Shown here in pieces: positions 11,880-63,367 of a stretch of DNA of 64,000 nt. A program made the position numbers and the translations under genes. Positions within the stretch are counted from its first letter, which is position 1. Each line of letters starts with the position of its first letter. The notes below the pieces were generated by a model that worked only from the letters and a program-made list of their open reading frames with translations, was not told where the DNA came from and ran no database searches. The stretch is from Cyanophora paradoxa CCMP329 (lineage: Eukaryota > Plantae > Glaucophyta), in NCBI GenBank assembly GCA_004431415.1, contig QPMI01000119.1:1-64000 (forward strand). The letters run 5' to 3'.

Positions 11880-11881
11880 GA

Positions 11882-38978: not shown

Positions 38979-38982
38979 TGCC

Positions 38983-39078
38983 ACACATATTGAAAAACGA
39001 ATTTAAATCCCTTCGTTCATCTCGATCGCTTCGCGATCTCGATTCACTCTGGATTTAAATTCGTTTTTCAATATGTGT
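38983..39078. repeat. Terminal hairpin: perfect 28-bp stem, 40-nt loop
   Basis: ACACATATTGAAAAACGAATTTAAATCC (38983-39010) and its reverse complement (39051-39078). Confidence 0.92.
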
Positions 39079-39127
39079 TAATTTAATACTAAAATACATA
39101 TTTATCGATTAATTTCTTTAACTTTTT

Positions 39128-39800
39128 ATGCAAATTTTGTATAAAATAATGCAAATTTTGTATAAAATAATGCAAATTTTGTATAAAATAATGCAAATTT
39201 TGTATAAAATAATGCAAACTTTGTATAAAATAATGCAAACTTTGTATTAAAAATGATAAACGCGTTTAATTTAATGCATATTCACGATTGATTCAATCGA
39301 TATTATATCGATATAATATGTTCTTTGTCGATTACATATATAACTTCGATTGATTAACATTAAACTACTTAAAGAACGATATAATCGCGATTAATTCGCA
39401 TAAATTCGCATAAATTCGCATAAACTCGATATATCTCTTTGGTATTGAAGTAGACCACCGCCCATTCTGTATCGAAAAACGCAAAAAGTGTCACAGAGTT
39501 GCATTATGTCCAATTAAACAATCGATGGGATTGCGGATGTACATTTTTGCACCCAAAAAGTGTCACAGAGTTGCATTATCTCCAATTAAACAATCGATTA
39601 GATTGCGGGATTTTCTATTGGAATATATCGGTACTGCATTATGTCCAATTAAACAATCGATGAGATTGCTGATGTACATTTTTGCATTGAAAAAGTGTCA
39701 CAGAGTTGCATGGTCTCCAATTAAACAATTGAGAAGATTGGGGATGGGCATTTTCTCTTCGAAAAATTGTCACAGAGTTGCATGGTCTCCGATCGATCAA
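39128..39800 (+). repeat. Subterminal tandem repeats: 21-bp ATGCAAATTTTGTATAAAATA (about 6 copies), ATTCGCATAA x3, and about 70-bp units (39483-39800)
   Basis: Directly visible; GTCACAGAGTTGCAT...TCCAATTAAACAAT recurs 4-5 times. Confidence 0.85.
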
Positions 39801-39809
39801 TCGAAGTAG

Positions 39810-40032
39810 GCATCTTTGGTAGGCGGTTTAGGCGGTTAGGCACTTCTTAATCGAGAATTAAAAAGAAGTCCCAAATACATCAACTTGTGTTTTTCAAAAC
39901 GTTGATTTTAGTTTTTATAGAGAATTTCCAGAAAAGGTGCCTAAGTGCCTAACGTCAATTAAAAGTGCCTAACTTCAATTAAAAAGTGCCTACTTCGATT
40001 TTTAAAGTGCCTACTACACCATTTTCAGTAAG
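39810..40032. repeat. Internal inverted repeat, left arm (GTGCCTA iterons)
   Basis: Reverse complement of 48771-48996 with scattered mismatches. Confidence 0.9.
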
Positions 40033-40207: not shown

Positions 40208-40462
40208 ATGCCGATTAACCAGCAATATCACAATTTCCATGGGACTTACATCTTGATTGTAAAGAAACTCCCAGAGCATTATGAGATCTTCCAAGAGATG
40301 GGATTGCGAATTACAAGGAGATCAACCCTTTGTAGATTCTTGAAAAAGAATGGTGCTAAATGGGATAAGACAATTCGCAAATGGTATACAGAAGATCCCA
40401 AGAGTCCCCTTCTGGATGTTTTCGAAACAGTGAATTTGGATCGGTTTAATCATTACCAATAG
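40208..40462 (+). CDS. Small protein with DUF5710-like motif (possibly degraded)
   Basis: KKNGAKWDKTIRKWY. Confidence 0.4.
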   Translation: MPINQQYHNFHGTYILIVKKLPEHYEIFQEMGLRITRRSTLCRFLKKNGAKWDKTIRKWYTEDPKSPLLDVFETVNLDRFNHYQ

Positions 40463-41378
40463 CCAGAAACTCCAACTGGAATGAGTTGTCTATCCCATTC
40501 ATGTCTACAAGATCACCATAATAATCTCTAAACTCAACTGTTAACTCTCTAATGACCAAATTGCGATCGGTTATTTTTATGTATTCACTGTGCTCTCCAC
40601 TGTGATAAACATACTGTCCAATATCTTTACTTAATTGCAATCTGAGAATCGCCCCTTGATTCTGTGGTTGTGATCTTGGGACAATATTGTGGTTTGTAGC
40701 AAATGGGGAGAGTTCTTTAATGTGCATGTATAAATACTGTTCTGCATTCATATCTGTCATCTTGGATGCTTCTAACTTGTAGTTTAAGCGAGATGCCTCA
40801 AATTCATATCCTGTGAATGTTATTCCCCATTGGGGATGGTTTGGGGTGATTGGTACTCCTGCAAAATAGAGGAAATTTTCTGGGGCATATAAAGACCTTG
40901 CAGACTCTGGGAAATCGTAGATGTGCTCAATTGAAGCGACCCAATCAACAGAACTCACCCCAAGAAGTTTACCCAATCGCTGTGTAGATGCTACCAATTC
41001 GAATTGAACATTACTGTAAAACTCTAACTTGTAGGAAGTAGGGTTGTAGTAGACCTTGAATGCATATGTGAGATTGTTGCTCCCAGTAAAGGTGAAATTC
41101 AGACCATAATTATATGGACTGGTGACCCCGAAATGCCCTTGATTAATATACCCACTTGGGAGAAGGAAGACCTGTTTGGTTTCAGAGATGCCTTGGTAGA
41201 AGAATCTGACAAGAAGGTGGTCTGTTCCAATGGAATTATAGATGCTGTTGGGGATCTCTGCATACAAAACTCGACATTCTCTTGGTTTGGTTACTGGGGT
41301 TGTGAGTGCAACTTTGTAGGAGTTTTCTATTTGTCCATCTGATCGGTCTCTGCTATCTATATTGACCAGCCGAATCAT
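40446..41378 (-). CDS. Minor capsid/penton-like protein 2
   Basis: NIDSRDR...RVLYAEIPNSIY; DMNAEQYLY; orthologue of 25889-26809. Confidence 0.78.
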   Translation of the reverse strand: MIRLVNIDSRDRSDGQIENSYKVALTTPVTKPRECRVLYAEIPNSIYNSIGTDHLLVRFFYQGISETKQVFLLPSGYINQGHFGVTSPYNYGLNFTFTGSNNLTYAFKVYYNPTSYKLEFYSNVQFELVASTQRLGKLLGVSSVDWVASIEHIYDFPESARSLYAPENFLYFAGVPITPNHPQWGITFTGYEFEASRLNYKLEASKMTDMNAEQYLYMHIKELSPFATNHNIVPRSQPQNQGAILRLQLSKDIGQYVYHSGEHSEYIKITDRNLVIRELTVEFRDYYGDLVDMNGIDNSFQLEFLAIGND

Positions 41379-41406
41379 TTTAATATATGTTTATAGATAA
41401 AAGAAG

Positions 41407-42417
41407 ATGCCTGTGGATTACATTGAAGTGAGCTCTTTCAATACAATTTCGGGAGATGGACCTACTTCGAGTTTTATTGCTCGCCTCCCCAGCACATATG
41501 AATTTGTAAGAGCAGTAAGACTGGTCTCAGCAGAATTTTATAACAGCATTCCCATGGTGAGTGGTGAAACCAAACCAGGAGATGTGACAATAGATAATGC
41601 AATCTACCTTTATTGGTCTGAATATCTTTCTGGTGCAGGAAGCACTGGTATTCCAACTGATCGACCTGCTGCTGATTATGAATCATGGAAACACATTGTG
41701 ATAAGTCGCAGCACACCCATTCAAAACCACCAACAACTGGTGAATGTAATTAACTCCAAACTTGCATTGAGAGAGCCACCAGTAGCAATTCGCTGTAAAT
41801 GGGATGATACACTGAAACGAGTAATATTTCATTCCACCATACCGTTTTACCTGGCTTTCTCAACTGCAATAAACCCAACCCAGGCACAGATTCAGAGGTT
41901 TTTGAGTTCTGCTCGACTGCTTGGTCTTGATCCTGGGAGATATGGTAACACACCAATCCAATCACAGGTGTACAATACTCTTACTGATGGTATCTTCACT
42001 GGGTCGATGGTGCATGGTATTATATCTTCATTTGAACCCGAGAAGACCAGGGATAGTGTCCTATTTGTGAGAGTAAAGGAGTTGGGTGATCTTGTGCAAT
42101 GTGGTGATGGTCTCCTCACTGGATATTTCCACAAAATCGTGGTTCCTGATAAAGATTATGGTGAGCATGTCGTTTATAATTCGACAGAAGCCCATCCGAT
42201 TTATAAATACTATAACAAGAATCTGGGGCTCTCCACATTTTCGGTTGACATTGTGAATGCAATTAATGAACCAATTGATTTCGAGGGTCAACCTGTCCAC
42301 CTCACCTTCGAAATTCGATATGGTGATGAACCTGCTGGTGATCCTGTGTACGAATACTTCAAGAGGAGAATGGCCGAAACACATCCATCTTATCCGGTTA
42401 TTGCGAATTTTGCGTAA
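41407..42417 (+). CDS. Minor capsid/penton-like protein 1
   Basis: VRAVRLVSAEFYNS; YNSTEAHPIYKY; FEIRYG; orthologue of 24896-25861. Confidence 0.78.
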   Translation: MPVDYIEVSSFNTISGDGPTSSFIARLPSTYEFVRAVRLVSAEFYNSIPMVSGETKPGDVTIDNAIYLYWSEYLSGAGSTGIPTDRPAADYESWKHIVISRSTPIQNHQQLVNVINSKLALREPPVAIRCKWDDTLKRVIFHSTIPFYLAFSTAINPTQAQIQRFLSSARLLGLDPGRYGNTPIQSQVYNTLTDGIFTGSMVHGIISSFEPEKTRDSVLFVRVKELGDLVQCGDGLLTGYFHKIVVPDKDYGEHVVYNSTEAHPIYKYYNKNLGLSTFSVDIVNAINEPIDFEGQPVHLTFEIRYGDEPAGDPVYEYFKRRMAETHPSYPVIANFA

Positions 42418-42471
42418 AATCAAGGATCATTGGTGAATTTTTTATGTTGCAGTATAATAAAAGAGATAATC

Positions 42472-43845
42472 ATGGATATTACTTCGACCCTCCAACGTCT
42501 TTCTCTGAAAGAAGCTCTAACAACCCCAGAAGAAGCCAAGGCGTTCTTCTTGGACAACTCTCTCATGCTTGGTCTTGAATCCAAGTCGAAGCCAGTTCTT
42601 GTTGTTGTGAACCCAAGCAACACTTTTGAGAATAATGCTGGAAATCGCATTTCTTTCAAGCTCCCTCGCTACAATTTCTGTGGAAAACTCGAACTTGCGT
42701 TTGACCTTCCAGCTGTCACTTTTGCTGGTGATACCGACCTTGTTCGCAATGGATACGTTCGCCCAGTTGGTGCTCTTGTCTCTCGACTTGAAATCACCTA
42801 TGGATCTTACACTTTCCATGTGCCTTCTGATTTCCTTGCTCATTTCCCTCTTATCTATTACAGTGAGGATCAACTCGCCAAGAAGAAGCGTTCAATGGGA
42901 ATGGTTCATGGTATCCCTGCCCATGGAACCAACCGACTTGGTGGGTCATTTTTCACTGAAATCCCAGTCCCATGGCTAAACCACTACCTACCTCTTGGTG
43001 CTCTCTCAGGAGAAATGGTGGTAACTGTCTGGTTCAAGGATGCTGGAAAGGGTTATGTTGAGACTTCTTATGGTGGTCGTGCTCTTCCTGTTGTTGGTGG
43101 AACAGCTGCTGATAAGACAGAGGATGATGGACTTGGTGCTACTGCTAATGCTACTCTTGCCCATGTTGGTCAACAGATCACCACTTTTGGAATTGGTGCA
43201 ACAACAACCCCCGAAATTAAAGTCACTTCTCCTCGTCTTTACATGCATGCTATTAATGTTTCTGATGAACTGTTTGCTACTGTCATTGAGAAGGTGAAGA
43301 CCACTGGTATGGCTATTCCTGCTCTGGATATTGGTTTTGTTGACAGTGTCAATTTTGCTGCAAAAGGCAATGCTCAACCAAATCGTATTAACCTGTCACA
43401 GATCTCTGGTCTTGTCTATGGTCTTCTTGTTTCAGTTCGTGATGCCGCAGGTATTGATGGTTTCAATGGTTCCCACAGTGTCCTAAAAACGCATGCTAAC
43501 TCAAAAGACATCACTTTCACTGTTGAAATTAATGGTCAACGTCTCTATGCTACTGAGCCCATCCCTCTCCTCAAAGGTGCCGAATTAATTGCGGATGCCT
43601 TCAAGTGCTCAAATATGGACAAGGTTGCAGACAAATATGTCCTTAGTGGTCTACCATTCTGTGTTGATGGAGAGAAAGCGATTCGCAACATTGCCCAGTC
43701 TGGCTATGTTGATCTCACGAACTCCTCCTCTTCTTTCCTCACTCTATACATGCCTTCTGACCAGACAATCACAGTTAATGTTCGTGCTCTCATGCACAGT
43801 TTCATTATTGTTGACAAAGATGGTCTCCGACGCATTAATCTGTAA
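42472..43845 (+). CDS. Double jelly-roll major capsid protein
   Basis: Colinear homologue of 23435-24823 (MDITSTLQRLSLKEALTTPEEAK...GLRRINL). Confidence 0.8.
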   Translation: MDITSTLQRLSLKEALTTPEEAKAFFLDNSLMLGLESKSKPVLVVVNPSNTFENNAGNRISFKLPRYNFCGKLELAFDLPAVTFAGDTDLVRNGYVRPVGALVSRLEITYGSYTFHVPSDFLAHFPLIYYSEDQLAKKKRSMGMVHGIPAHGTNRLGGSFFTEIPVPWLNHYLPLGALSGEMVVTVWFKDAGKGYVETSYGGRALPVVGGTAADKTEDDGLGATANATLAHVGQQITTFGIGATTTPEIKVTSPRLYMHAINVSDELFATVIEKVKTTGMAIPALDIGFVDSVNFAAKGNAQPNRINLSQISGLVYGLLVSVRDAAGIDGFNGSHSVLKTHANSKDITFTVEINGQRLYATEPIPLLKGAELIADAFKCSNMDKVADKYVLSGLPFCVDGEKAIRNIAQSGYVDLTNSSSSFLTLYMPSDQTITVNVRALMHSFIIVDKDGLRRINL

Positions 43846-43907
43846 AACCATGATCAGTAACATTTCGTTATTTTTATCTATCTTTATTAAGAAAGATCCA
43901 CAAAGCC

Positions 43908-44690
43908 ATGAACGATTTGGAAGAATTTAATGCAGGCGAAATGATAACCCCACCATTTCGTGCTCTTTTCATAGGAAAGTCTGCAACAGGCAAGTCAGAA
44001 TGTGTGAAATATTGGTTGAAACAGCTGCATGATGCGAAAAAGATCGATACTGTTCTTGTTGTGAGTGGGACGTCCTTCAATCATTTCTGGGATGCAGTTG
44101 CAACATTGCAACTCGGGAAATGGGATGCTGCTTACATTTCCAAATTACTGGATGAAAGGCAGGAGAAAATCGAAAAAGGGGAACCTGTGAATCAAATGTG
44201 TATTGTCCTTGATGATTTAATAGATAATGAGTTAGTCGATTTAACTCGCGATAAAATTGTTGGCTCTGTTTTCAATAGGGGGCGCCATGCGATGGTGTCC
44301 TGTGTCTGCATAACTCAGAAATTGCGTAAGGTTTCTTCAACAATTCGAGTAAATTCGGATTATGCTGTGTTCCTGAGTGCTGCAAATCGAAAAGAACTCG
44401 AAGCCATTGAAGAGGAATACAATATCATGCGAAACAAAGACGATTTCTATAAGATGTTTGAGGAGTATGTGCACTCTTACCAATATCTTGTGTGGTCTTC
44501 TGCGAATTATTCGGTGAACTATTATGTTGATAAAGCGGATCTGGTCAAAGATTTCCCATTTCCTCGGTTCCACAGGAAGCCCAAAAAGAAAGAAGATGAA
44601 CTACCATCACCACAGAAAGAGGAAGCCCCCAAAGAGGTCAAGAGTGGTGTTCATTCGAATAAACTGATGCGATATAAGAGAGGTTTGTAA
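43908..44690 (+). CDS. A32-like packaging ATPase
   Basis: GKSATGKS, CIVLDD, RGRHAMVS, TQK...IRVNSDY. Confidence 0.92.
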   Translation: MNDLEEFNAGEMITPPFRALFIGKSATGKSECVKYWLKQLHDAKKIDTVLVVSGTSFNHFWDAVATLQLGKWDAAYISKLLDERQEKIEKGEPVNQMCIVLDDLIDNELVDLTRDKIVGSVFNRGRHAMVSCVCITQKLRKVSSTIRVNSDYAVFLSAANRKELEAIEEEYNIMRNKDDFYKMFEEYVHSYQYLVWSSANYSVNYYVDKADLVKDFPFPRFHRKPKKKEDELPSPQKEEAPKEVKSGVHSNKLMRYKRGL

Positions 44691-44718
44691 AATAATCTCT
44701 GCTTCTAATAAATATACA

Positions 44719-45453
44719 ATGCCTTCCAAACGCAAAGTTGGTGTTCCTGCTGGTGCTATGTCATATTCTGCATCCTCTGGAACCGGTTCTATTAACACAG
44801 AGCCCATGAAATTCAATGGTGTCAATGAAGTTAAAGCATCACAGCAACAGGAGGATCCCCTCAATGCTGCTTACGAAGAATCACCAGATGCTAAAGCGCC
44901 CCAGACATCCACCAGTGATCAATTGAATATTTCACCCGAAACCTCTAAGATGAAGGCAGTTGGTGAAGGTGCTCGTCGAATTATTGGTGCTGCTGATGAC
45001 AAAGGATTGGGTCTGCAAGATCTCTCACTTGCCCGAAAAGGTGAAGGTGTCTCCAAGGAATCTGACAAGGTAATTCAATCCATGGCTGGCGAGGTCACCT
45101 ACAAGGTCGCACCTACACAGAATATTCATCGAATTCCCAAAGCCCAATGGGACGAAATGACTGCGAAACTTAAAGATCTGGAAGCGAAATCCAGTGCACT
45201 TGAACAGTATGTCTCTGAGAAGAAAGAGAGAGCAAAATTGAAGGAGATGCTGCGAAAGGAGGTGTACAGAATGGGAATTACTGGTCTCCCAGATAAGCAG
45301 TTCATTGGTAAGAAAGAAACTCAAATCGATGAGCAGGCAGTTGATGAGATGAAGACCAAAACCCAGAAGGGCACCATTGAACCTGGTGCTACCAAGGCAG
45401 AGGTTGATAAAGGTGTTGCCCCAACAGTATATAAACGACGAGTTTGGCTATAA
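44719..45453 (+). CDS. Conserved coiled-coil protein (possible core protein)
   Basis: Homologue of 22039-22671. Confidence 0.7.
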   Translation: MPSKRKVGVPAGAMSYSASSGTGSINTEPMKFNGVNEVKASQQQEDPLNAAYEESPDAKAPQTSTSDQLNISPETSKMKAVGEGARRIIGAADDKGLGLQDLSLARKGEGVSKESDKVIQSMAGEVTYKVAPTQNIHRIPKAQWDEMTAKLKDLEAKSSALEQYVSEKKERAKLKEMLRKEVYRMGITGLPDKQFIGKKETQIDEQAVDEMKTKTQKGTIEPGATKAEVDKGVAPTVYKRRVWL

Positions 45454-45480
45454 TTATCTCGCTTTAAGAGAGAGAATATC

Positions 45481-45915: not shown

Positions 45916-46143
45916 ATGGAAACTGAATCTGTGGTCGAATTCGAACTTGCAATGAGCGAAATGGATCCCAATGAGAGGAAAAGGTTGTATGACCGCTTGT
46001 ACTTCCAGAAACGTTATCAAGATGAGGAGTTCCGTGAATTATATCGTAAAAAGGCACTGGAACGATATTATCGCAGGAAAGCTGCTGAGATGGATCCCAA
46101 TAATCCAGTAAAACGCCCAGTTGGTCGTCCCAGGAAATACTGA
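45916..46143 (+). CDS. Small basic protein with AT-hook
   Basis: C-terminal KRPVGRPRKY. Confidence 0.65.
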   Translation: METESVVEFELAMSEMDPNERKRLYDRLYFQKRYQDEEFRELYRKKALERYYRRKAAEMDPNNPVKRPVGRPRKY

Positions 46144-46330
46144 ACCGCCCCCAAAGTCCCAAATATCCGCTGAATCCTTTTTGTTACCATGATCGATCGA
46201 CTTTTCGATGGATCATTACCATATATCGAGCGCCAATCGGAAAACCCAAAGGTATTTAAAGGTTAGCCGCCAAAAAATGACAAGGATCCGGAGAAATTAA
46301 TTTCTCCATTAAGTATAAGAAGACCCCAAG

Positions 46331-48724
46331 ATGTTCAACTCTCAGCAACCGAACGGACTTAAAATCGCTCTCTTTGAGAAGGTGGATCGCTCCACTCTCA
46401 AATACCTGATTGATAATTTCGAGACTTTGGAGTATCGACCTGATATTGATGCAACTGCTACTCTCACCCTTCTCCAACGTTATTTCAAGGATTTGAAGCG
46501 AGATGGGCGCATTGAAGTTAAATATCATCAATGCAAGCATAATACTGGTCGTTATTTCGTGAATCTTGAACACATCAAGAAGAAGCAAGCATCAATGCAA
46601 GGAATGCCCAGAGAATTCCGCCACACTCTTGCTCGCGATTTCTACTACGATATCGATATGAAAAATGCGCATCCCACACTTCTCATTCAGTATTGTGAAA
46701 AAAATGAAATCGTTTGTGAGGGTCTCACTGATTATGTCGACAATCGTGATAGTATCATTGCTGATATAAGCAAGAAATCGGGACTTTCTCGCGAAGATAT
46801 CAAGAAAGCGTTTCTTTCTGTTGTAAACGGGGGTGGGGGCTCAATTGATAACAAGGAGCTGCTGAACCACCCCAAGTTCAAAGCAGTTAAGAACGAAATC
46901 ACAGGAATTCACGCTCAAATTGCAAGCATGCCCGAAAACCACAACTTCTTCTTGATTTGCAAGCGAAAGAAGGAGTATAACATCTTTGGTTCAACCATTA
47001 ATATGGTTCTTTGCAAATTGGAGAATGAATGTCTGATTGCGCTTTGTCAGTATTTAACCTCACTTGCTGTGAAAGTCGGTGTTCTCGTTTATGACGGTTG
47101 TATGGTTGAAAAAGCCCTTGAATTACCCGAAACTCGTCTCCACAATATTCTCTGTGATGCTACCAAGTATATTGAGAATATCACTGGCTACAAGATTGAG
47201 TTGATGATTAAACCAATGGATCAAGGATTTACGATTCCAACAAATTCAAAAAGTGTATCCTCTCCTCTTAATATTGTTCGGGATGATCGTGAAGCTGCTC
47301 TCACATTTGTTAAATCGATTGAGGGGCGAGTGGTCATGTCTGATGGTCGTATATTCGCTCAGACAGACGATTTTCTGTGGACTGATGATTCCACAATGGT
47401 CTACAATATAATGTTGAAATTGTGCATGCAGTGCTTCATGTTCAAGGAGGATGACAAACGTAACTTGAAGCCATATTCTACCAATCTTACTGGGGCAGAT
47501 CGAATTATCAAGACAGCCAAAGCATTTCTGCCCAATAATCGTGTGTTCTACAATGATATTATGTGGTCATCGACCATTGGGAAATTGTGCTACCGAAATG
47601 GTGTGTATGATTTCGAGACAAAGAAGCTCACACCATGGGACAAATGTGACAAGATCTATTCTACCACTCGAACTGAGAGGGATCTTCTTGTTGACAAAGA
47701 TGGATATGTGATCAAGCCATCTGATTCGGATATTCAAACCCTTTTCGACAAGATTCTGGAACCCGTTTTCGGAACTGATTCGATTTCTTCTGCTCTGGAA
47801 TTCACAGCTCGTGCAATGGCTGGGAAATACGAAGATAAACAGTGGGGATTATCAATTGGTGAACGCAATTGTGGTAAGGGGGTTTATGTGAATCTCAATG
47901 AAAATACCTGGGGAAGTGGATATGTGCACACCATCAGTGGGGAGGCATTCTTGCTGAATAAGAACTCAGATGACAACGATACCTCCAAGTTAAAGTGGAT
48001 GAAACCTTGTGAATTTCGTCGTCTGACATTCACCCAAGAGATGAAATTCGATGTCTCAAACACAAATATTAAGGTGAATGGTGCAATGATCAAAAAGAAG
48101 GAATCTGGTGGTGATGTTCAATGCATGCGTGTTCTTTATGAAAATGAGGTCAATATTCGCCTCCAAAGTCGTTTGTGGATGATCATGAATGATGTTCCAC
48201 CCATTTCCCCATCTGATACCCTTCAAACCATGGTATTGTTCAAGCACCCCCACAAATTCGTTGATCAAAAGACTGTTGAGGAAATGAACTCTCCTTGTGT
48301 GAGATTGGCTTCGGAAGATATCAAGAGTGTTCTGCTAAAAAGTCCTGAGATAATTAGAGCATTCGAATGGATGGTGTTTGAAGCCTACAAATCTCAGAAA
48401 TTCGTGGTGTCTGGGAAGGTTGCTGAGGATATTAATGAATTCCGGGAAGATGCAGGTGATGAAATGTCTCTGATCAGATCAGTGTTCGAATTCACTCGAA
48501 ATTCATCCGATTCTGTAACTTCCAAGATGGTTGAGCAAGAGATCAAGCAACTGAGACTGAATATGTCTGCAAATCGCATTAAAACTGTGATGGGTTTGCT
48601 TGGAGCGAAATATGACAAGAATGCAGTTCGCAAGAAGGTTGGTACTGGTTATGATCGTGGCTACAAGGGTGTGAAGAAGATTGATAAGACACCTACTGTT
48701 GTTGAGTTTGATGATGATGAGTAA
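46331..48724 (+). CDS. TVpol (PolA-related primase-polymerase) fused to a D5-like superfamily 3 helicase
   Basis: GRYF, SMQGMPREFR, YDIDMKNAHP (motif A), VLVYDGCMV (motif C); NGVYDF, Walker A GERNCGKG, IMND. Confidence 0.85.
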   Translation: MFNSQQPNGLKIALFEKVDRSTLKYLIDNFETLEYRPDIDATATLTLLQRYFKDLKRDGRIEVKYHQCKHNTGRYFVNLEHIKKKQASMQGMPREFRHTLARDFYYDIDMKNAHPTLLIQYCEKNEIVCEGLTDYVDNRDSIIADISKKSGLSREDIKKAFLSVVNGGGGSIDNKELLNHPKFKAVKNEITGIHAQIASMPENHNFFLICKRKKEYNIFGSTINMVLCKLENECLIALCQYLTSLAVKVGVLVYDGCMVEKALELPETRLHNILCDATKYIENITGYKIELMIKPMDQGFTIPTNSKSVSSPLNIVRDDREAALTFVKSIEGRVVMSDGRIFAQTDDFLWTDDSTMVYNIMLKLCMQCFMFKEDDKRNLKPYSTNLTGADRIIKTAKAFLPNNRVFYNDIMWSSTIGKLCYRNGVYDFETKKLTPWDKCDKIYSTTRTERDLLVDKDGYVIKPSDSDIQTLFDKILEPVFGTDSISSALEFTARAMAGKYEDKQWGLSIGERNCGKGVYVNLNENTWGSGYVHTISGEAFLLNKNSDDNDTSKLKWMKPCEFRRLTFTQEMKFDVSNTNIKVNGAMIKKKESGGDVQCMRVLYENEVNIRLQSRLWMIMNDVPPISPSDTLQTMVLFKHPHKFVDQKTVEEMNSPCVRLASEDIKSVLLKSPEIIRAFEWMVFEAYKSQKFVVSGKVAEDINEFREDAGDEMSLIRSVFEFTRNSSDSVTSKMVEQEIKQLRLNMSANRIKTVMGLLGAKYDKNAVRKKVGTGYDRGYKGVKKIDKTPTVVEFDDDE

Positions 48725-48770
48725 AATACTTCTGTTATGATTCTGATTTCTATATACATTCTTTTTATAC

Positions 48771-48996
48771 CTTACTGGAAATGGACAGTAGGCACTTGAA
48801 TAATCGAAGTAGGCACTTTTCAATTGAGGTTAGGCACTTTTAATTGACGTTAGGCACTTAGGCACCTTTCCTGGAAACTCTCTATAAAAAATAAAATCAA
48901 CGTTTTGAAAAACGCGACTTAACCTTTTTAAGACTTCTTTCTTACTCTCGATTCAAGAGTGCCTAACTGCCTACAAGTGCCTACAAAAAATGATGC
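48771..48996. repeat. Internal inverted repeat, right arm (TAGGCAC iterons, about 21-bp period)
   Basis: Begins 47 nt after the TVpol-helicase stop codon. Confidence 0.9.
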
Positions 48997-49027
48997 GATT
49001 TCAGAGATGGGATCCAAGAGCACCACA

Positions 49028-49339
49028 ATGACCACATTCTCAAAAGAAGATTTCGCCCGACTCAATCATGAATGCTATGGATCTGATCCAGTTCTGACAG
49101 ATGCAGAGCAAAGAAAAAAAGTGCTTCGGTTGATCTTGGAGAAAGGAGGATGTAAATATGATCAGATGCCCAGGCATTTCAGAAAGAAATTAGATAGATA
49201 CTGCGAAAATGGTAGAGGTCACCAGTGTGCAAATGATTTCGAGGAAATGAGAGCGGGGCAGGGTCGTCATGATGTGAACCATGCAAGAAAGCGACTTCAA
49301 GATAAACTTTCAAAACGCGTTCAAAACGCCCGAAAATAA
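49028..49339 (+). CDS. Hypothetical protein
   Basis: Charged ORF between the repeat and polB; start uncertain. Confidence 0.5.
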   Translation: MTTFSKEDFARLNHECYGSDPVLTDAEQRKKVLRLILEKGGCKYDQMPRHFRKKLDRYCENGRGHQCANDFEEMRAGQGRHDVNHARKRLQDKLSKRVQNARK

Positions 49340-49360
49340 TATGTTCCCTTAAAGTAAAAG

Positions 49361-52300
49361 ATGCCCCGCCAATCCAATAGAATCATCAAAGAGAAGAAAA
49401 ACGAAATACTCGGTCTTTTAGGAACCCTTTTAGTCACTGGTGATATTACAGAATTCGAATATGATCGCCAGGCAGCAATCTTGGATAGGAGACCAAGATT
49501 ATCTCAACTCACAGAAATTACAAATCGACTGTATGATCGTTTTGAGAAAATGGAGGAATTCAGGGATGAAGGTTTAAGGTTGGGAGCGATTGCACCAGAG
49601 ATTGAAGATGGGAAGCAATGAACAAAGCATATTCTTGGTTGACCTATCGAGCCAGAGGGAGGTTATCCAAGATGGGATTGAATTCTTGGAGAGAATTGCA
49701 CCCACTCTACCTCAGAGACTCAGACAGAAACTCCAAGACCTGCGAGCAATTAAAACTCGGTTGACCTTCATTTGTAAATTCACCAAAGTGAGTGATCAAA
49801 GGGTGTGGATCACCAAATTCATTTACAGTGATTACTTTGTCATCACAAGATCACGAAATATTGATGTTGAACTGCGAAATGCCCTTCAATCTATGCAGGA
49901 ACAGATGATGCAGGTTGACAGTTACAGACTGGATCGCATTGAGATGCTGAGAGTGGTAATAATGTCTTATGCTCCTGTGGGTGGTTGCTTCTTCTCGACA
50001 CCTGAGTGGATTGGATCAAAGAGAGCAACTGTGAATGTCAAGAATATTGATGGTCAAGACTGCTTCAAGTATGCAATCTTGGCTTACCTGCACCGAAATG
50101 ATATTAATAAACACAAGAGCAATGAACCCAGCCAGTATAGAAGATGGTTAAACGAACTCGATTTCGAGGGCATCCAGTTTCCAGTTGCCTGTGATGCAGA
50201 GGTTATTGATCGATTTGAGGAGCAGAACCCTGAACTCTCAATCAACATTTATGGTGCAGATAATCAAGCACAGTGTTTCTATCCTCTCCACCAATCCAGC
50301 AACCCCAGGAGAAAGACCAAGATTAACCTTTTATTAATCGAAAACGAAGAGGATGATAGAGGGTATTATATCACCATCATGTCTCTGAGTAGACTTCTGA
50401 AAACCACCTTTGATAAAGCCCATGATGGTCGCATTTATTATTGTGAGACCTGTCTGTCTCGTTTCAGAACTCAGGAGAAGCTGGATGTACATATAGAAGC
50501 AAATCGCTGCATTGATTGGAGGGAAAGCAAAGGTAAATGTCCGAAATCTGGAAGTCACATTGCATTTGGGCTTCAACACCTTCGCAAAACTGTGTGGCTT
50601 CCCACTATCTGCTATGTGAAAATGGACAGTCACTCGGTTCCAATTGATGAGAACCGCAGTAAGAGAGAGGTTAAATCGGTTTCTCTAACAGTTGTGATGG
50701 GGGATGAGGTGATCTCTCATTATTTCGAGGGATCAGATCCACTTGGTGCTCTGTTTACCACTCTCACAGAGATCAGACCCCAAGTAATCCGCACTCTATT
50801 CACCAATATTCCAATGCACCCACTCACAGAGGAGCAGAAAGCACAATACAAGATTACTAAACACTGTTATATCTGTGCTGAACGATTTACCCATGAGAAT
50901 TTCCCAGTGAGAGACCATTGTCATCAATCAGGAGCATTTATTGGGAAAGCATGCAGAAACTGCAATCTCCACAGGAGAATCTCGAAACAAACCAAGGTTG
51001 CAATAGTGGTGGATCACATGGATGAATGTGGACACGAAATATTCCGCAAAATTGCACAGCAAGATGATAAACTTCGTGTTGAGATTCTGAGCAAGAATTT
51101 CGATCAATACCTCTCTCTGCAATGGGGCATGTGGAAATTCATAGATGCTTCGCACTTCATGGACTTCCAGGCAGTGGATTCTGGTGATCTTATGAGTAAA
51201 TTCCAGACATTCCGAGAATTGGCGTTTACACAATATGGATTGGATCCTGCCCATTATGTGAGCGCTCCTGGATTATCCTGGGATGCAATGCTCATTTATA
51301 CCAGAGCAAAGATCGAGCAGATCAGTGATGTAGGGCAATACGAATTTATTGAGAGGGCAATTCGAGGTGGGTTTGCTACAATGCCTACTCGATATGCAAA
51401 GGTGGATAACCCAGATGACCATATAGTTCTCTTAGATGCAAATAATCTGTATGGTTATGCTCTCAGTCAAGAACTGCCCATTGGAGATTTTCGATGGGAA
51501 GATATCACAGAGGCACTTAAAGAGACCCCAGGACGAAGTGCCTTTATTGAAGTAGACCTGGAATACCCACAAACTCTCACAGATCATTACGATTTTCCAC
51601 TTGTAGTGAATAAAGAACATGTCACCACCGAAATGCTGGGTGGGTATCAAAGAAAGTTACTGGATATCACAGGTGAGAAGATAAGCAAAGACCCCAAACT
51701 CACTGCAACATTCTCACCCAAAAACAAGTATGTTATCTCCCAACCTCTCTTGGTCTATCTTGTGAGCAAAGGTATTATAATTAAGAAGGTTCACAGGGTT
51801 CTCTCATTTGCAACCTCTGCATTCATGAAGAGTTATATTGATCTAAATACGAAACTGAGGCGCCAATCTGTCACCAGATTCGAGTCTGACTTCTTTAAAT
51901 TAATGAACAATGCAATCTATGGTAAATGCCTCGAATCATGCAGGGGTCGATCTGTGGTAAAGATTGCTAACAGTGAGAAACTCTGCAAGAAATATGCTGC
52001 AAGTCCATTGATCAAGGCAACCAATGTATTAAACGAAAATGCTGTTGCCTTTGAGATGTACTCAAAGCATGTTCACTTAGATAAACCAGTAGCAATTGGT
52101 GCTTTTGTGCTGGATTTCGCCAAACTCCATAATAGCAGGTTCTTTTATGATGTGGTGAGGAGAACTTGGGAAACAGCAGAGCTGCTGTTCCATGATACAG
52201 ATTCTTTCTGTCTACTGCTGCATACCAATGATCTAAATAATGAGATGAAGCGAATTGCTGAACACCTGGATTGCAGTAATTATGATCCAGCCCACCCTCT

Positions 52301-52640
52301 CTTTGATAGGAGCAATCGTTTGATTCCAGGTAAATATAAAAACGAGTTTCCCCATGCAAAGATTGTGGAGTATGTAGGTCTGAGATCGAAACTCTATGCT
52401 TTCAGAACTGAGACCTTTGATAAAATAAAAATGTCTGGAACCTCCTCAAAAGAGGTTTACTTTGATGATTTCAAGAGATGCTTGTTTGAAGGCATCACCA
52501 AAACAGTAGCAGTAGTAAACAAGCGAAGACAAGACCACAACCTATATGATTTGGAGAGCAGAAGGGTGGCTCTAAACCAACTCGATAGCAAAAGGAAGAT
52601 ATTAGACGATGGAATTCACAGCATTCCATTTGGGCTCTAA
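49361..52640 (+). CDS. polB: Protein-primed family B DNA polymerase with C2H2 finger and endonuclease VII-like insertion; degenerate exonuclease; probable frameshift near 49610
   Basis: CFKYAILAYLH, YCETCLSRF...H, CYIC...RDHCH...CRNCN, YGLDPAHY, DANNLYG, KLMNNAIYGK, HDTDSF, GLRSKLY. Confidence 0.88.
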
Positions 52641-52823
52641 TCTACTTCATTAATCTTTCTTTTTCTTTGGTTTCGCTCTCCAAGAAGTAATAAACCGCGA
52701 ATTAAATGCAGCAGCCAAATACATCTTAATCCAGGATCATTGGGCTCGATTGCAAAATAGTTTGGAATTGTGTTCTCTTTCCACACAGACTCTTGCATTT
52801 ATTATATGAGAGATAAGGTAAAG

Positions 52824-54224
52824 ATGCCTTCAACACAAATAGGATTGAGACAACCACCAAGAATTGTGAGAAAAGAGGCAATTGAAGATCGAGGGAATAT
52901 CCTGCCCATCACAGTTCCAGTGGAGGAGAAGAGCAGTCGAATATTAAAAAGATCAGAGATGGTCAAGCAATTAATCCCAGAGACCCTCCCAGCTGAGACA
53001 GCAACAAAAGAGTCAAAGATTGCTAAGAAGTTCTATGATCCCAGGACAGGCTACAAAGGATTTACTGCAATGAGACAGGAACTACCAGAGGAGAACTACA
53101 AGAAGATGAGAGAATGGTATGATAAGCAGGAGGTTGTCCAAATTAATGCACCCACTCTATCTCGAAAGAGAGATCCCATGATTCCAATTAGGCAACCCCT
53201 TGATACATATGTGATTGATCTGCTCTTCTTTCCTGCATACAAAAAGCAGAATGATGGTTATGATACATTTATGAGTGCAATGGAATCAACCCTGAGAACA
53301 GGGTTCATAATTCCAATGAGAGACAAGAGTGCTCTTACTACTCTTGCAGCATTCAAGCAACTTGAACAAAGAGTCCCCAGACCGATTGTTCGCATTCAGA
53401 GTGATAGTGGAAGCGAATTTACCAATGTGCTATTCACAGATTATTTGGGAACCAAAAGCATAGAGCATCAACTAAGTGATGTTGCAGATCACAGAACCCA
53501 AGGTCGAATTGAAGCCTTTAACAGACAGATCAAAAGATTGATCACAAACTACTGCATTGCAAATAATACTGCACGATTTTTTGATGTGTTGGGTGATATT
53601 GAGTATAATTATAATAATACCATTCACTCTGCAACCAAGAGAAAACCAGCAGAGACCACAGAAGCCCACTACAAAGAGATTGTGAATATGGAGGATCAGA
53701 GATTCAAGAAATCGATTGAGTATCTTGATGCTCTGAAACCTGGAATGTTTGTGAGAGTAAAAGTTGAAAAGAATCCATTTGCAAAGCAGGGTGTTAATTG
53801 GTCTCGAATTGTTTATAGTGTGGAGGGCAGAGAGGGCTTCAAGTTCAGAATCAGAAGTCCAAGTGGTGAGATAGTTGATGGTAGATTCGCTTTTCATGAA
53901 CTGCTGCCCATCAAAGGTGTTGAGTATCATGAAACTCCCACAGTGGATGCCCTTGAACATGCAAAGGAGGAAGCCAGGGTTGATTCTGCAATCAGAAAGG
54001 AGGGCATAGAAAAAGCAAGTGAAGTACCAAAAGAACCCCTCACAGAAGCAAGAGCACAAAAGAAGGGTAGAGTAGAGAAGGAATTAAAGAAGTTGACCAT
54101 AGCAGGAACCCAGAAATTATCAGAAGTTAACAGTCAGAGGTGGTATAATGACTTTTCAACCACCAAGGAAACATATACTGCACCCCAAACTCGATTTAAT
54201 CTACGAAGTGGGCAGAGGAAATAG
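52824..54224 (+). CDS. int: Retroviral-like (rve) DDE integrase
   Basis: YVIDL, QSDSGSEF, QGRIEAFNRQIK, YNNTIHSAT; start uncertain. Confidence 0.92.
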   Translation: MPSTQIGLRQPPRIVRKEAIEDRGNILPITVPVEEKSSRILKRSEMVKQLIPETLPAETATKESKIAKKFYDPRTGYKGFTAMRQELPEENYKKMREWYDKQEVVQINAPTLSRKRDPMIPIRQPLDTYVIDLLFFPAYKKQNDGYDTFMSAMESTLRTGFIIPMRDKSALTTLAAFKQLEQRVPRPIVRIQSDSGSEFTNVLFTDYLGTKSIEHQLSDVADHRTQGRIEAFNRQIKRLITNYCIANNTARFFDVLGDIEYNYNNTIHSATKRKPAETTEAHYKEIVNMEDQRFKKSIEYLDALKPGMFVRVKVEKNPFAKQGVNWSRIVYSVEGREGFKFRIRSPSGEIVDGRFAFHELLPIKGVEYHETPTVDALEHAKEEARVDSAIRKEGIEKASEVPKEPLTEARAQKKGRVEKELKKLTIAGTQKLSEVNSQRWYNDFSTTKETYTAPQTRFNLRSGQRK

Positions 54225-54225
54225 A

Positions 54226-55507: not shown

Positions 55508-57049
55508 TTATACACTTCGAATAAATGCACCTGTAACATCCACTCTCATTGTTGGGGTATTTATATATACAATTGGATAAATACGAATATACCTTGTCCT
55601 CAGAGGGTAGCCAATATAGAAAACGTCTTTAATAGAGGTGGGATACCCAGAACTGTATGAGACATCACCACTGTTATGGGCATTATTAATTGTTTCACAC
55701 ATGAACACTCTATTCACACCTTCATACTTGATAAATGACCAGGAGACACCATCTTGTGAGGTTGCAACATTGAAGGTCTTAACAAAGGCATTGGTCACAC
55801 CAGACCCATATGCAATTATAGATGCTACCTCATATATATATGGGAAGGATACTTGGAGATACTCAGTGGGAACACTCCATATCCCATCAGGAGCAGATGC
55901 ATTTGCCTCCCAACCAGTTAATGAAGGTCTTGCTTTAAATGCCTCCCTTCCAATTTTTGATGATGAAGCAGTGAATGCACCATCTGATAGAAGATACCAG
56001 TTAGCATCAATGGGAGGTATGTTATTCAGAGTGGATGATATATAGAACCTTGCAGGGTTCTTGATTTCGTAATTTGCAACCAGTAAATCACAGAGTCTAT
56101 CAATCATCACAGTGTTTGCTGCTATGTACATTTCGGTTGCATCTATCATATCTGGGATCTTAGAGGTATCATCCAAAGAGTTTACTATGGTCTTTGGAAG
56201 TGGAACAGAGAGTCTATAATATCTTGCATATCCTTGATCATCATTGTATGGGAGAAACTCTTGCATCTTTTCCAGAGCAGAGAGTTCACTTGCAGCCATC
56301 AACATATTAATTAATGGACTCCCAGAGGTCGAAGCAATCCATGAGAGAATGCCCCAGCTGTTGACATCTTCATAGGAATATCCCACATTTGGGGCATCTG
56401 TTTCATTGACCTCACCACAGGATATACTGATCACAATTATATCATCATCATCATCATAGATCTTTTTAGCATGGCTGTAACCACATACACTGGGATTGTT
56501 GTTACCTGATATTGCACCATCAATTAGAGACATCCCATCATAGTTCACAGGTGAGAAGTAAGTAGGTGCAGCAGAGGTGGATCTTGCAGCAATCTTGCTG
56601 GGGATGGATTTGTAGGAATTATCATTGGTGATAAAGATGGGCTTCATACTCACAGTATCAAAACTTGTTATCACTACATCTTTTAGAGAGTCTTGAATGA
56701 GAGACTCACCAGTAACAGTGAGAATGGCTGTCTCCAATGGGGTCACATCATACTTGGTGTTGAAAAGGGCATTATCTATAATATTTCTGGGATTAGCAAA
56801 GATTAAAGGCAATTGATTGAGATAAGTGGAATGCAAATCGGTTGCAGTGAGTTTAGGTTCGTTTGGGAATTCGGGATTTTTCACATTGAGACCAATCGCA
56901 ATTATCCCACCAGTGGATGTACCACTCACCAGGTCAACAAGGTCTATTACTCTTTTTCCTGTTCGAGTTTCGATTTCTTTAAGCAATCTCGTAATAATTA
57001 TACCACGAGCTCCCCCACCTGAGAGACTGAGGCAAATCTTCAAAGGCAT
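55508..57049 (-). CDS. Patatin-like phospholipase fused to a C-terminal discoidin (F5/8 type C) domain
   Basis: SGGGARG, GTSTG, TSAAPTYF, DGA; FTASS...EYLQVSF...FVKTFNVATSQDGVSW...TRYIRIYP...MRVDVTG. Confidence 0.9.
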   Translation of the reverse strand: MPLKICLSLSGGGARGIIITRLLKEIETRTGKRVIDLVDLVSGTSTGGIIAIGLNVKNPEFPNEPKLTATDLHSTYLNQLPLIFANPRNIIDNALFNTKYDVTPLETAILTVTGESLIQDSLKDVVITSFDTVSMKPIFITNDNSYKSIPSKIAARSTSAAPTYFSPVNYDGMSLIDGAISGNNNPSVCGYSHAKKIYDDDDDIIVISISCGEVNETDAPNVGYSYEDVNSWGILSWIASTSGSPLINMLMAASELSALEKMQEFLPYNDDQGYARYYRLSVPLPKTIVNSLDDTSKIPDMIDATEMYIAANTVMIDRLCDLLVANYEIKNPARFYISSTLNNIPPIDANWYLLSDGAFTASSSKIGREAFKARPSLTGWEANASAPDGIWSVPTEYLQVSFPYIYEVASIIAYGSGVTNAFVKTFNVATSQDGVSWSFIKYEGVNRVFMCETINNAHNSGDVSYSSGYPTSIKDVFYIGYPLRTRYIRIYPIVYINTPTMRVDVTGAFIRSV

Positions 57050-57076
57050 TTTGTCACTTTAACATTGACGGATATT

Positions 57077-57787
57077 TTAAGAATTGTTTACTAATCGGTA
57101 ATCCTCATCAAACTTTAACAAGTTTGCACGAAATTCCTTTGCCTTTGAAAATGCATCTTCCTCTGTGTATTTTTTAAGTGTGAACCGTTTCGAATGTGTT
57201 TTCAAATTTCCAGTGTCATCTTTAATTGTTACAATAGCGCAAATATACCAAACATTCCATCTCTTGTCAAACGATTTGAAAATGTTCGAGGATTCATGAA
57301 CAAATTTCCGATTGATTGAATTTACCCTCTGAGATACAATTCTGAGATTCTGTTTCCTATTATCAGATCTGATCTGATTAATGTGATCAATACATTCTTT
57401 TTGCTTTTCCCTTCATACTTCATTACAGCTCTATGCATATGTCGAAACTTGCATGTGTTTGATGAAACATAACCATTGTGCGAATGCCAAATATGAGAAT
57501 CCAGAATATCAAAGTCTTCCACATCAATTAATCCAAGAACATCATTCTGAGTTGTGAATTCAATCGTTTTATCATCAACATATCGATATTTGTTAAACAC
57601 TTTTCCCTGTGCAATACAAACTTCTTTCAAAGCACTTTCGGCTTCATCTTTCGTATCAAATCGCTTTTCCTTTCTATTACCGATTTTGTCAAAATACTTC
57701 ATCAACCACTTCTTTTACAGTCTGTTCTTTTTGAGAGATAGACAGTTCCACCATACTTTGCGATGTTATCACTGTAAAGCCACATTT
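57077..57787 (-). CDS. HNH endonuclease (frameshifted)
   Basis: LIDVEDF...WHSHNGY...MHRAVM, then a shifted frame CIDHINQIRSDNRKQNLR that runs to TAA at 57077. Confidence 0.75.
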
Positions 57788-57908
57788 TGCTCCGTTACTC
57801 CTCCTTATAATACTTATCCTTAAATACTTTTTGACATCATTTTTGAGGCGAAGGGGCATCTTTACTTAACTCAACTTTAATAAATCTCTATAAGTAGAGT
57901 AAACAGGG

Positions 57909-60900
57909 ATGAGTTTCAATTACCCAGCAAACCTACAAACCATTCCCTCATCAGGAAGAGGGAGGGCAGATAACAAACATGTAAATTTCGATAACTTGAC
58001 AGCCAGAGGGTCAATCTCAATCGACCATAGTGCAGATGAACCCTCAAAGACTCACCGAAGAATGCATGCACTTTCAATAAACGAAATGGATCCTGAAAAA
58101 GAGGATGTGAGTGTTGCTTTCAGCATGGGGAATGTGAAATCGAATCAGGTAGCCCAGATTAAAGCAACCAGGAGCAGACCAAGAAAACTGAAAACCAGTG
58201 GAACCCACCCAGATATTCCAACTCGATTCGATAGTGGTAGGTTAATATTCAATGTTCAAAATGAGAAGGGTGGGCATCAGAGTGGTTTAAGAATCTATAA
58301 TGAAGGATCAAATGCAATTGCACAAATTCCCGAAATATTACAGATAGCCCCCCATGGAGAAACCAACAAAATCGAGTTCACTAACAATGTTTATCCAAGA
58401 GATATTGTGGCGAATTCGGCTTCTAATGCGCAATTCGGTTTCCAACTACCTGGTGATACAGCAAAGAATAAGGCGTCTTTCACTGTCAACAGTAGCCCCA
58501 CTCAACCAGTAACAATTCATTTACATCCAGACCTTGTCGAAATGGATAGGCACCTTTTACCTCTGGTAACTAATACCAAAGATCTTGGTATCAGAACCAG
58601 GCAATGGCGAAATATCCATGGAAGCAATGTCTATGCAAATGGAGAGAAACTTGTTAGTGAGAAGACCATCAGAGAAATATTTGAATATTATGGACCTGTC
58701 CCAGTTCCCTTTCCTCTTCCATGGGATCCACCAGATTTAACACCCAAAAAGCAACCAGGAAGAGAGTACACAGCAGATGAGACAGTTCCTTTTGGTCAAC
58801 ACATTGTGAGTTGGGAGCAGGTTCGCAATAAACCGATAATTGAACCAAGAAAGCAAATTGATGAGCAATATTTACCTCCTGAAATCGATATTTTGGAGCT
58901 TGACGAATACCAATTCGTTCCAGATGAGGAGGAATACCTACCTGATGGTTTCGACCCACAGGAGTATGAATATGATCAATATGCTCCCAATGAGGAAGAG
59001 TACTTACCAGATGGCTTAGATCCACAAGAGTATGAGTATGAGCAGAATTATGAACCCCATGAGGAATATTTACCAGATGGTCACGAACCACCAGTTGTGG
59101 ATTATGAGCAACCTTACGAACCCCATGAAGAATTATTACCAGATGGATTTCGACCTGAGATTTGGGAGTTCTTTCCAGATTGGGAGCAGATCAACAATAA
59201 ACCAGCGAGATTTCCACCAGAGGATCACAACCATGACTGGGATGAGATCTTAGGTAAACCAGAGAAATTCCCACCAGAGGATCACAGGCATGATTGGGGT
59301 GATATTGATGGAAAACCAACTGAGTTTCCACCAGAAGACCACTTGCATATTTGGAGTGAAATACGAGAACAACCCACTTTTGCATCAGCAGGTAATGTAT
59401 TATTAGGAGATATTAACAATGGTGTGAGTCTCTATCAAAATATAGACACACCAGCAAGATTACAATTAAATGATTACTATGTGAATCGAAAGGGAATAGA
59501 TGCAGGCACCACAATGGAAGGCGAATTATACATTAGACCCCCTACAAGAAATGGAATATTGGGACTTGGTGGTGGTATTGAAATTAAAGACACCAAACCA
59601 GGTATCTATCTTACCAGCTACTATGCAGATGACATCCCAATGACAGGAGGTTTAATATCTTTACCTTCTGATCCAGCAAACTATGATGATAAAAACGCTG
59701 CAATCCAAATTAATGTTACTGATGTGAGTGATTTAGATTCATCAAGACCGAAATTAATATTCAGCAGAGAGAGATTGTTACCAGATGCACTTTTAGGAAA
59801 TCGAGACGATTATAAACAGTGTGAGGTGTCATGGATTAAAACAAATTATAATGGTGGAGTGGGTGAGGGAGTCTTAGAAATCAATCAGAGGGCAGCAGCA
59901 AAGAATATTCACAATGAGACCATATCAAGAGTGGTTACAGAGGATTATCTGAGAGACAATGGAGCAACAATCATCGCAGGAATTGCTGTGGAGGGTGCTT
60001 ACCTTCCTCTCACTGGTGGAACTGTCACAGGTGATGCTCATGCTCCGAATTTCCTTGTTGATACTCCAAATGCTCAGACATTTCCTGTTGTTCACCCAGG
60101 TGCTGAATATATATTAGATGCAAACACTCCAATTAGTAGAGTCGAATTACCAACGAATTTCACCTTTAATCTTGTGGATGTGTTCCCAAACAGCCATAAT
60201 CTCATGTATTTCTCTTCTGAGAATTACCTTTCAGGTGCATTTTCGCCCATTGAACTCTCCATACCAAAGCAAAAGGTGAGCTACAAAGAACTCACAGATG
60301 TCCCGGCAGGATTTAGTGGTAAATGGACTGATATAACGGAGAAGCCAACTTGGAGTAGTTTAGCATTCACAGGTGATTACTATGATTTATCAAGAATTCC
60401 CGATTTCACCACTTATATACCTCGTTGGATTGATCAAAGTGTAATTATATCAGAATCTACACTCCCTTTCAATGGGACATGGGATAGACTATTTACTAAA
60501 CCGAATTTGCATGCTGTGGCTACAAGTGGTGACTACAATGATTTAACTAACACCCCTACTGCACCGACCTTGCATGCTGTGGCTACAAGTGGGAGCTATA
60601 CAGATTTAGTTAATACACCTAACCTCCACGCTGTGGCTACAAGTGGAAATTATGATGATCTGATTAACACACCTACTTCGCCACCCACTCACAATCACAG
60701 CATAGAGTTGCTCACGAATTTCGGTAATTATGTGAATGCAAATGCATATGTGCAACAGGGGACAGCGAATGTAGTTTTGGAAAATAGAATATACAATGCA
60801 GGAGAGACCTTTCAGTTATCGGGAACGGTCGTATTCTCTACCCCATTTTATAGTGATGCAGTGATTACTACCTCTATCGAGAATAGCTACAACTCTGTAA

Positions 60901-61103: not shown

Positions 61104-61123
61104 TTATAAAGAGCAATTTAAAG

Positions 61124-62080: not shown

Positions 62081-62101
62081 TAAAATGTTTTGCTATAATA
62101 A

Positions 62102-62365: not shown

Positions 62366-62490
62366 AGAATTCGAAGAATGAGAGATGGGTTTATTGTTAT
62401 TTTTCATAGATCATGCATAAGAAAGGCATGTATCTTGCATGTCCTTCTTGAAAGTCGTTTATTTTTCTTTCCTTCTTAGTAAAAGAAGCA

Positions 62491-63344: not shown

Positions 63345-63367
63345 AAGATATATCTGTTTAATATAAA

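Follow-up and report, generated by a model that had tools for sequence, protein, structure and literature searches.

A probable accessory TVpol-helicase cassette beside an exonuclease-less pPolB in a polymorphic family of integrated elements in Cyanophora paradoxa

The window analysed here, a 64,000-nucleotide stretch of the Cyanophora paradoxa CCMP329 assembly, contains two related integrated elements of about 42% GC against a host background of about 60%. The first, PLV-1, is complete at 14999-36610, with TG..CA ends, 380-bp TIRs (80% identical) and a 6-bp duplication, and it has neither a TVpol gene nor the iteron arms described below. The second carries both TVpol and pPolB; it begins at 38979, with single-copy host contigs breaking off at 39009-39011, and its right end lies beyond position 64000. 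Its features are as follows.

38979..39810, no strand: left end of the element, starting with TG, with a 28-bp perfect hairpin (38983-39078) and then 21-, 10- and 72-bp tandem arrays
39811..40032, no strand: left arm of an inverted repeat, candidate origin, with four TAGGC, a 92-bp core of 73% AT and five inverted GTGCCTA
40449..45453, no single strand: capsid module, with minor-capsid candidates, major capsid protein (MCP), A32 ATPase and a 244-aa ORF
40449-41378, minus strand, and 41407-42417, plus strand: two probable minor-capsid genes, assigned by position only
42472-43845: MCP gene, whose features match Capsid_N/Capsid_NCLDV clusters at 0.98
43908-44690: A32 ATPase gene (Pfam Pox_A32)
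45916..46143, plus strand: 75-aa basic ORF just 5' of the variable slot, at family depth (contig 45899-46109, depth 1677 in run X1)
46328..49312, plus strand: variable cassette of TVpol-helicase, right arm and 110-aa ORF; most copies have other sequence here
46331..48724, plus strand: TVpol-helicase gene, with a predicted PolA fold (aa 1-298) and D5/SF3 helicase (aa 307-788) ending in a predicted winged helix
48771..48992, no strand: right arm, candidate origin, with five TAGGCAC (spacing 21, 21, 20 and 8), a 92-bp core of 70% AT and three inverted copies
49007..49339, plus strand: 110-aa ORF inside the cassette, matching no Pfam family
49361..52640, plus strand: pPolB gene with an HNH/EndoVII insert, Pol A-C intact and Exo I-III lost; its 5' part is split in the window copy
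52806..54224, plus strand: rve-type DDE integrase gene, by Pfam and BLASTP
55508..64000, no single strand: patatin lipase, fibre-like, C1q and further genes common to PLV-1, running off the window

The element has the double jelly-roll MCP and A32 ATPase expected of a PLV, and its capsid module has homologues in PLV-1 at 31-56% identity; a scan of IMG/VR with the MCP returned no relatives. No Pfam match to an Ulp1/adenain protease occurred among the ORFs scanned, which include part of the small ORFs of an element cut by the window end. Neither the 110-aa nor the 75-aa ORF has a homologue in the loci we fetched (best E 0.9 and 0.06, respectively).

Several further observations concern the surroundings of these genes. 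The hairpin at 38983-39078 has a 40-nt loop and sits at the extreme end of the element, and in the host flank the stretch 38168-38366 has a depth in the thousands between single-copy contigs, as a high-copy repeat would. Candidate promoter motifs, AAAATTGA or AAAAATGAC, occur at 40168, 45827 and 46273, 5' of a DUF5710-like ORF, the 75-aa ORF and TVpol, respectively; they resemble the giant-virus early promoter reported upstream of the PgVV TVpol. Tandem arrays of 24, 39 and 31 bp, absent from PLV-1, lie between integrase and lipase (54629-55037). The fibre genes of the two elements (29617-30798 and 58773-59954) are 84% identical across 1.18 kb, whereas their MCP genes match at about 69% and in short stretches only, a contrast that suggests recent exchange between the two families. 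A third element at 6757-13400 encodes a UL9-like origin-binding helicase (PF02399), split over 7790-8530 and 8488-10005, and a YqaJ nuclease; it also has 142-bp repeats with 52-bp palindromes and an inverted copy at 6757-6817.

A reading of this locus from sequence only had described an intact fusion of a PolA-type TVpol with an SF3 helicase, and our analysis bears this out. The ORF at 46331-48724 is open over 797 codons. In its predicted model, residues 1-298 align to the Klenow fragment (Z 16.3, rmsd 4.1, 282 aligned) and residues 307-788 to the D5/E5 and SaPI5 PriRep helicases (Z 25-27); the SaPI5 primase-helicase is the top Foldseek match, and the alignment to PriRep5 runs through residue 788. 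The catalytic residues are in place: 37 of 37 aligned TVpol domains share D107, K158 and D255, and R74 and R97 do not vary either; the RxxxK of the fingers HTH (R154xxxK158) and the conserved hairpin arginine are present in the sequence; and the Walker A GK515-516 shows no variation in 15 of 15. The gene thus has the features of TV-Pol, namely a PolA palm with two catalytic aspartates, a C-terminal D5-like SF3 helicase and no nuclease domain. Pfam detected neither DNA_pol_A nor DNA_pol_B_2 in the two polymerase genes, a PDB sequence search with the TVpol-domain profile gave nothing significant, and a single-sequence TVpol scan of IMG/VR found no relatives; the PolA assignment is one from predicted model and motifs. 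Primase and polymerase activity of the TV-Pol family is itself a prediction (Iyer 2008). The proposed dN/dS check shows an excess of synonymous change in TVpol: the window ORF differs from the dominant contig at 20 listed positions (24 in the whole contig) in 18 codons, of which 11 changes are synonymous, 7 non-synonymous and none a stop, giving omega of about 0.17 (binomial p 2.5e-4) from substitutions that cluster and so are not independent.

The pPolB downstream is a more unusual protein than that reading had supposed. The distance it gave, about 0.6 kb, stands: an 86-codon ORF at 49361, 0.64 kb from the TVpol stop, aligns with residues 1-71 of P0023, a 1083-aa relative that is 47% identical, and thus is the true N terminus of pPolB. 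The gene is not a canonical pPolB, however. Its best fold match is the phi29 polymerase (E 2e-18; a PDB sequence search gave nothing significant) and Pol A, B and C residues are all present, but all four acidic residues of Exo I-III, each kept by 146-147 of the 150 best relatives, are absent, with a deletion of about 100 residues around Exo III, near aa 518. P0023 has the same loss and is its sister with support 1.0 in a FastTree phylogeny of the polymerase part only (midpoint root; 151 rows, none dropped). Because the loss is shared with P0023, it predates the cassette, and we rejected the idea that it is decay driven by TVpol. P0103 and P0164 lost the exonuclease separately and form a second lineage of exonuclease-dead pPolBs. 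Mavirus-type pPolBs likewise lack the Exo motifs, so the gene still counts as a pPolB variant. No genomic context was retrieved for P0023, and a metagenome scan gave only relatives of 28-42% identity.

Compared with the dominant contig, the window copy has one single-base indel at 49609 and another at 49656, and these split the pPolB frame. At 49609, 17-18% of the depth lacks the majority form in two of the four runs and none does in the other two. The vOTU domain keeps its Cys, and its His, present in 148 of 150 relatives including P0023, is Tyr in the window copy. The pPolB region of PLV-1 consists of three ORFs (16405-17280, 17295-17765 and 17795-19729). The integrase that follows, as had been claimed, is supported by Pfam at E 5e-4, below the curated cut-off, and by BLASTP at 1e-24 to an integrase beside a Polinton pPolB; the adjacency of pPolB and rve integrase is a Polinton feature.

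Comparison of contigs from several sequencing runs revealed that most copies of this element lack TVpol. More than half of the words of 44000-53000 occur in 20 of the 23 listed runs; all are from one organism, probably one strain, and thus replicate the assembly rather than the biology. We compared contigs from four runs over 37001-57000 and from two runs over 45601-49900, taking contig depth as a rough measure of copy number, from a source that filters its records. TVpol contigs have depths of 404, 690, 756 and about 292 against 74, 118, 123 and 44 for the host flank, or 5.5-6.7 times as much in the four runs. In run X1, the family flanks on both sides lie at 21-23 times host-flank depth, and an alternative allele at 19 times. 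The contig of this allele tracks the window to 46327, three bases 5' of the TVpol start, and then diverges; at 49313 other sequence rejoins the window, and both loose ends recur in two of two runs. Thus, by contig depth in four runs, the family has about 21-23 copies, 5-7 of them with TVpol, and 46328-49312 is an alternative allele carried by about 22% of copies. Because no single contig spans both borders of the majority allele, we infer their junction from depth; this allele occurs nowhere else in the window.

The cassette itself is continuous with its surroundings in the contigs. Its left border is bridged by a single contig (46286-48858), the outer edge of the repeat by another (48946-49212) and the right border by a third (49106-49407). 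No unique contig bridges the repeat core at 48859-48945, so that the inter-arm segment may lie either way round; both replicase genes stay in one element whichever way it lies. The claim of one element with two replicases accordingly holds up in the contigs, which give no sign of a chimeric join or of independent nested elements.

The internal iterons noted earlier are present as well, as part of a larger structure: a 222-bp inverted repeat (86%) with arms at 39811-40032 and 48771-48992. In both arms, TAGGCAC-type repeats point towards one another from either side of a 92-bp core that is 70-73% AT, and the right arm begins 47 nt past the TVpol stop. Relative to TVpol, the collapsed arm core, read at 39911, has a depth of 2.02, 1.92 and 2.06 in runs X1, X4 and X9 (run X17, where overlapping contigs were summed, was left out). 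Since this is the depth of two arms per TVpol copy and none elsewhere, the arms appear to be confined to TVpol copies, with the limit that arms less than 85% alike in other copies would escape detection. A contig at about single-copy depth skips the left-arm core (39845-40005) in four of four runs, possibly representing one copy that lost that origin. We rejected the arms as the true TIRs of the element, which starts 830 bp further left, and no duplication was seen at the arm ends.

This layout resembles a known type of origin. In SaPIs, the origin is reported just downstream of rep, where opposed iterons around an AT core are bound by a winged helix (PMC9371898; bioRxiv 10.64898/2026.10.17.759575), and the right arm is built the same way, with two or more opposed iterons flanking its AT-rich core on either side, a short distance 3' of the replicase gene. 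We scanned for this layout in 77 IMG/VR TVpol contigs with 79 loci, which are the best 80 of 145 matches less two repeats of one contig. It occurs in 16 of these 77 contigs from the best 80 of 145 matches, and in 14 of the 16 it lies within 500 bp of TVpol, where random placement predicts 2.4 and an intergenic-only null 7.6; it was found in 0 of 21 pPolB loci and gave no matches in five block shuffles. The thresholds behind these counts were chosen after viewing the window arm and seven loci, they miss the left arm of the window itself, and some of the scanned TVpols are related, one pair being 98.6% identical. Five free TVpol contigs have similar arms in pairs, separated by 7-11 kb. Elsewhere in this set, inverted arms tightly bracket TVpol in the manner of a minimal mobile replicon (L017 3610-6733, L029 9440-12497, L033 53-2808 and L038 9524-12311), L033 and L044 have Sputnik-type capsid genes, and the contigs of L050/L051, L055/L057 and L081 carry two inverted TVpol gene copies.

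Outside this family, the two replicases were not seen together in the loci scanned. The suggested search for co-occurrence succeeded within the family, where about 22% of copies have the TVpol slot, and failed in IMG/VR, where three local profiles detected pPolB in 0 of 79 TVpol loci among the best 80 of 145 matches, many of them partial (median 12.8 kb); local profiles likewise found an rve integrase in 0 of the 79. Pfam annotation, covering 25 of the 77 records from the same best 80 of 145 matches, shows PF03175 in 0 of 21 whole single-contig TVpol records, and its only matches are in two of four giant-virus bins, on contigs not tied to the TVpol gene. Conversely, 0 of 18 loci fetched with pPolB queries contain TVpol. 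Given the absence of pPolB from the 79 loci and 21 records, TVpol usually works alone.

Published accounts agree with this picture in part. Three papers treat the two replicases as alternatives (PMC12220804, PMC10675990, PMC13215967), and Yutin 2013 describes the combination of pPolB with a primase-helicase as uncommon. The pairing is nevertheless not new: according to Barth et al. 2026, a second replicase, PolA or AEP, has joined individual elements that also have bracketing repeats, and these authors report that pPolB pairs with DDE integrases while PolA genes can be acquired without an integrase (bioRxiv 10.64898/2026.10.13.758929). The co-occurrence of two replicases is thus already known. 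In a literature search that covered few subscription journals and neither figures nor bioRxiv supplements, we came across no publication that deals with iteron origins in TVpol viruses, with allelic replicase slots, or with exonuclease-dead HNH-type pPolBs; what we did not find described is therefore the polymorphism within a family, with its co-segregating origins, and the exonuclease-dead HNH-type pPolB.

We favor the explanation, with a probability of roughly 0.55, that a pPolB-rve family gained an accessory cassette of TVpol plus origin, which is kept under selection in a subfamily. This explanation draws on the polymorphism of the slot, on depths that place the arms in the same copies as TVpol, on the intact catalytic residues and on the synonymous excess. 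The two inverted iteron repeats likely serve as origins for the TVpol-helicase, so that TVpol copies would be able to start DNA synthesis at internal sites in addition to using protein priming at their ends. If the protein works as SaPI PriRep does, hexamers of the helicase may dock on the facing heptamers by way of the winged-helix domain, melt the AT core and then unwind the duplex, leaving the PolA domain to prime and extend. Parsimony suggests that the cassette was gained by the family and not lost from it, and pPolB and integrase would be retained for the element ends and for insertion. With TVpol absent from about 78% of copies, the cassette is accessory rather than essential, and an obligate division of labor between the two replicases, one of the options originally put forward, is unsupported. 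So is repair by PolB in the proofreading sense, since the exonuclease motifs are gone.

Alternatively, the slot may provide the exonuclease-less pPolB with its helicase in a division of labor like that of mavirus, with TVpol-SF3 having displaced a resident helicase and perhaps also priming. This would fit with the link drawn by Krupovic 2024 between exonuclease loss and helicase gain in pPolB systems, with a separate SF3 gene in mavirus (PMC11161782), with the position of the slot directly 5' of pPolB, and with our failure to recognize a second helicase in the portion of the element that lies in the window. We consider it unlikely, because the iteron arms track TVpol and a mere helper would not need them, and because TVpol occurs at loci without pPolB (0 of 79 by profiles, 0 of 21 records, both among the best 80 of 145 matches).

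The replacement in progress that had also been proposed is plausible if it stands at an early stage, at which the copies are still polymorphic. In a fuller form of this idea, pPolB would be decaying in TVpol copies specifically, its terminal-protein frame broken and its vOTU protease inactive. The two 5' indels and the His-to-Tyr change in the window copy point this way, the 17-18% of depth without the majority form at 49609 in two of four runs is close to the TVpol share, and a contig of TVpol-like depth departs from the window over 50345-50487, which covers the His codon (50364). Yet the majority form makes up all of the depth at 49609 in the other two runs, and both indels lie in short base runs. 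Short base runs are a frequent site of assembly errors. Furthermore, the pPolB of PLV-1 is also split although that element has no TVpol, the exonuclease loss common to P0023 is older than the cassette, and 3 kb of the pPolB frame is still open. On balance we regard a replacement already under way as rather improbable.

A quite doubtful extension of the cassette idea is that the 9.2 kb between the inverted origins, with capsid genes, packaging ATPase and TVpol-helicase, forms a self-contained mini-virus genome, copied out upon activation without pPolB or integrase and borrowing fibres from full-length copies. If true, it would offer a one-step route from a pPolB virus to a TVpol virus. Depth outside the right arm is 0.86-0.98 of TVpol depth; with depth equal inside and outside the arms, we rejected free amplification of the inter-arm segment, and hence of such a mini-virus, in the sequenced cultures.

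Finally, it is very improbable that the locus consists of two separate elements, nested or in tandem, or that the assembly is a chimera with its join at the repeat near 48900: inverted repeats do bound 39811-48992 with its capsid genes and replicase, and the repeat core does lack a unique bridging contig, but the two halves together make up a single PLV-1-like gene set in which no gene occurs twice, family depth is equal on the two flanks, the depth steps fall at 46327 and 49313 and not at the repeat, the DNA outside the right arm is at TVpol depth, and no target-site duplication is seen at the arm ends.

Swapping between pPolB and PolA-helicase replicases in virophages and PLVs has so far been inferred mostly from trees and single contigs. 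In the family described here, a single genome contains both replicase states in about 22 near-identical copies, which differ in a defined 3-kb slot and in a candidate cis-site that accompanies the newcomer. A swap can thus be followed from one copy to the next, with questions such as which of the enzymes replicates the element, whether TVpol primes at an iteron origin and whether pPolB decays later. The proofreading-dead HNH-type pPolB lineage is also relevant to the link that has been proposed between losing the exonuclease and gaining a helicase. Together, the polymorphic slot, the co-segregating origins and the exonuclease-dead pPolB make this a useful and testable variant.

The TVpol-SF3 proteins of Sputnik (V13), OLV (OLV25) and PgVV are reported with the same domain order and catalytic residues and no nuclease domain, as sole replicases that usually accompany a tyrosine recombinase (PMC2579912, PMC3671162). 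SaPI5 PriRep is likewise described as a fused primase-SF3 helicase with a C-terminal winged helix and an iteron/AT-core origin just downstream (PMC9371898), whereas the window protein has a PolA-type N-terminal domain, belongs to a eukaryotic virus and is accompanied by two inverted copies of the candidate origin. The window pPolB, by its HNH insert alone, would be a pPolB2, and it shares with Polinton pPolB2 the HNH/EndoVII insert and the integrase link; Jeong 2023 reports exonuclease motifs conserved in Polinton pPolBs of all groups, while the window protein has lost all three (bioRxiv 10.1101/2023.08.22.554363).

A pPolB without proofreading is also reported for mavirus, an element that has an SF3 helicase gene and an rve integrase as well. 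In the window element, by comparison, the helicase is fused to a PolA domain and missing from most copies, the pPolB belongs to the Polinton type with an HNH insert and has a shrunken exonuclease region where mavirus lacks most of the exonuclease, and the capsid matches no virophage Pfam family. A further close parallel is found in the multi-replicase polisuviruses (Barth, Ha, Aylward, Fig. 6C, D, F), which likewise are shown with a pPolB-DDE pair, an integrase-less PolA or AEP gene and non-terminal repeats nearby. In the text of that study the words 'iteron' and 'exonuclease' never occur, and we saw no copy-by-copy polymorphism in its text. In polisuviruses the repeats are described as bracketing the replication genes apart from the capsid module, whereas in the window element they bracket the capsid module together with TVpol.
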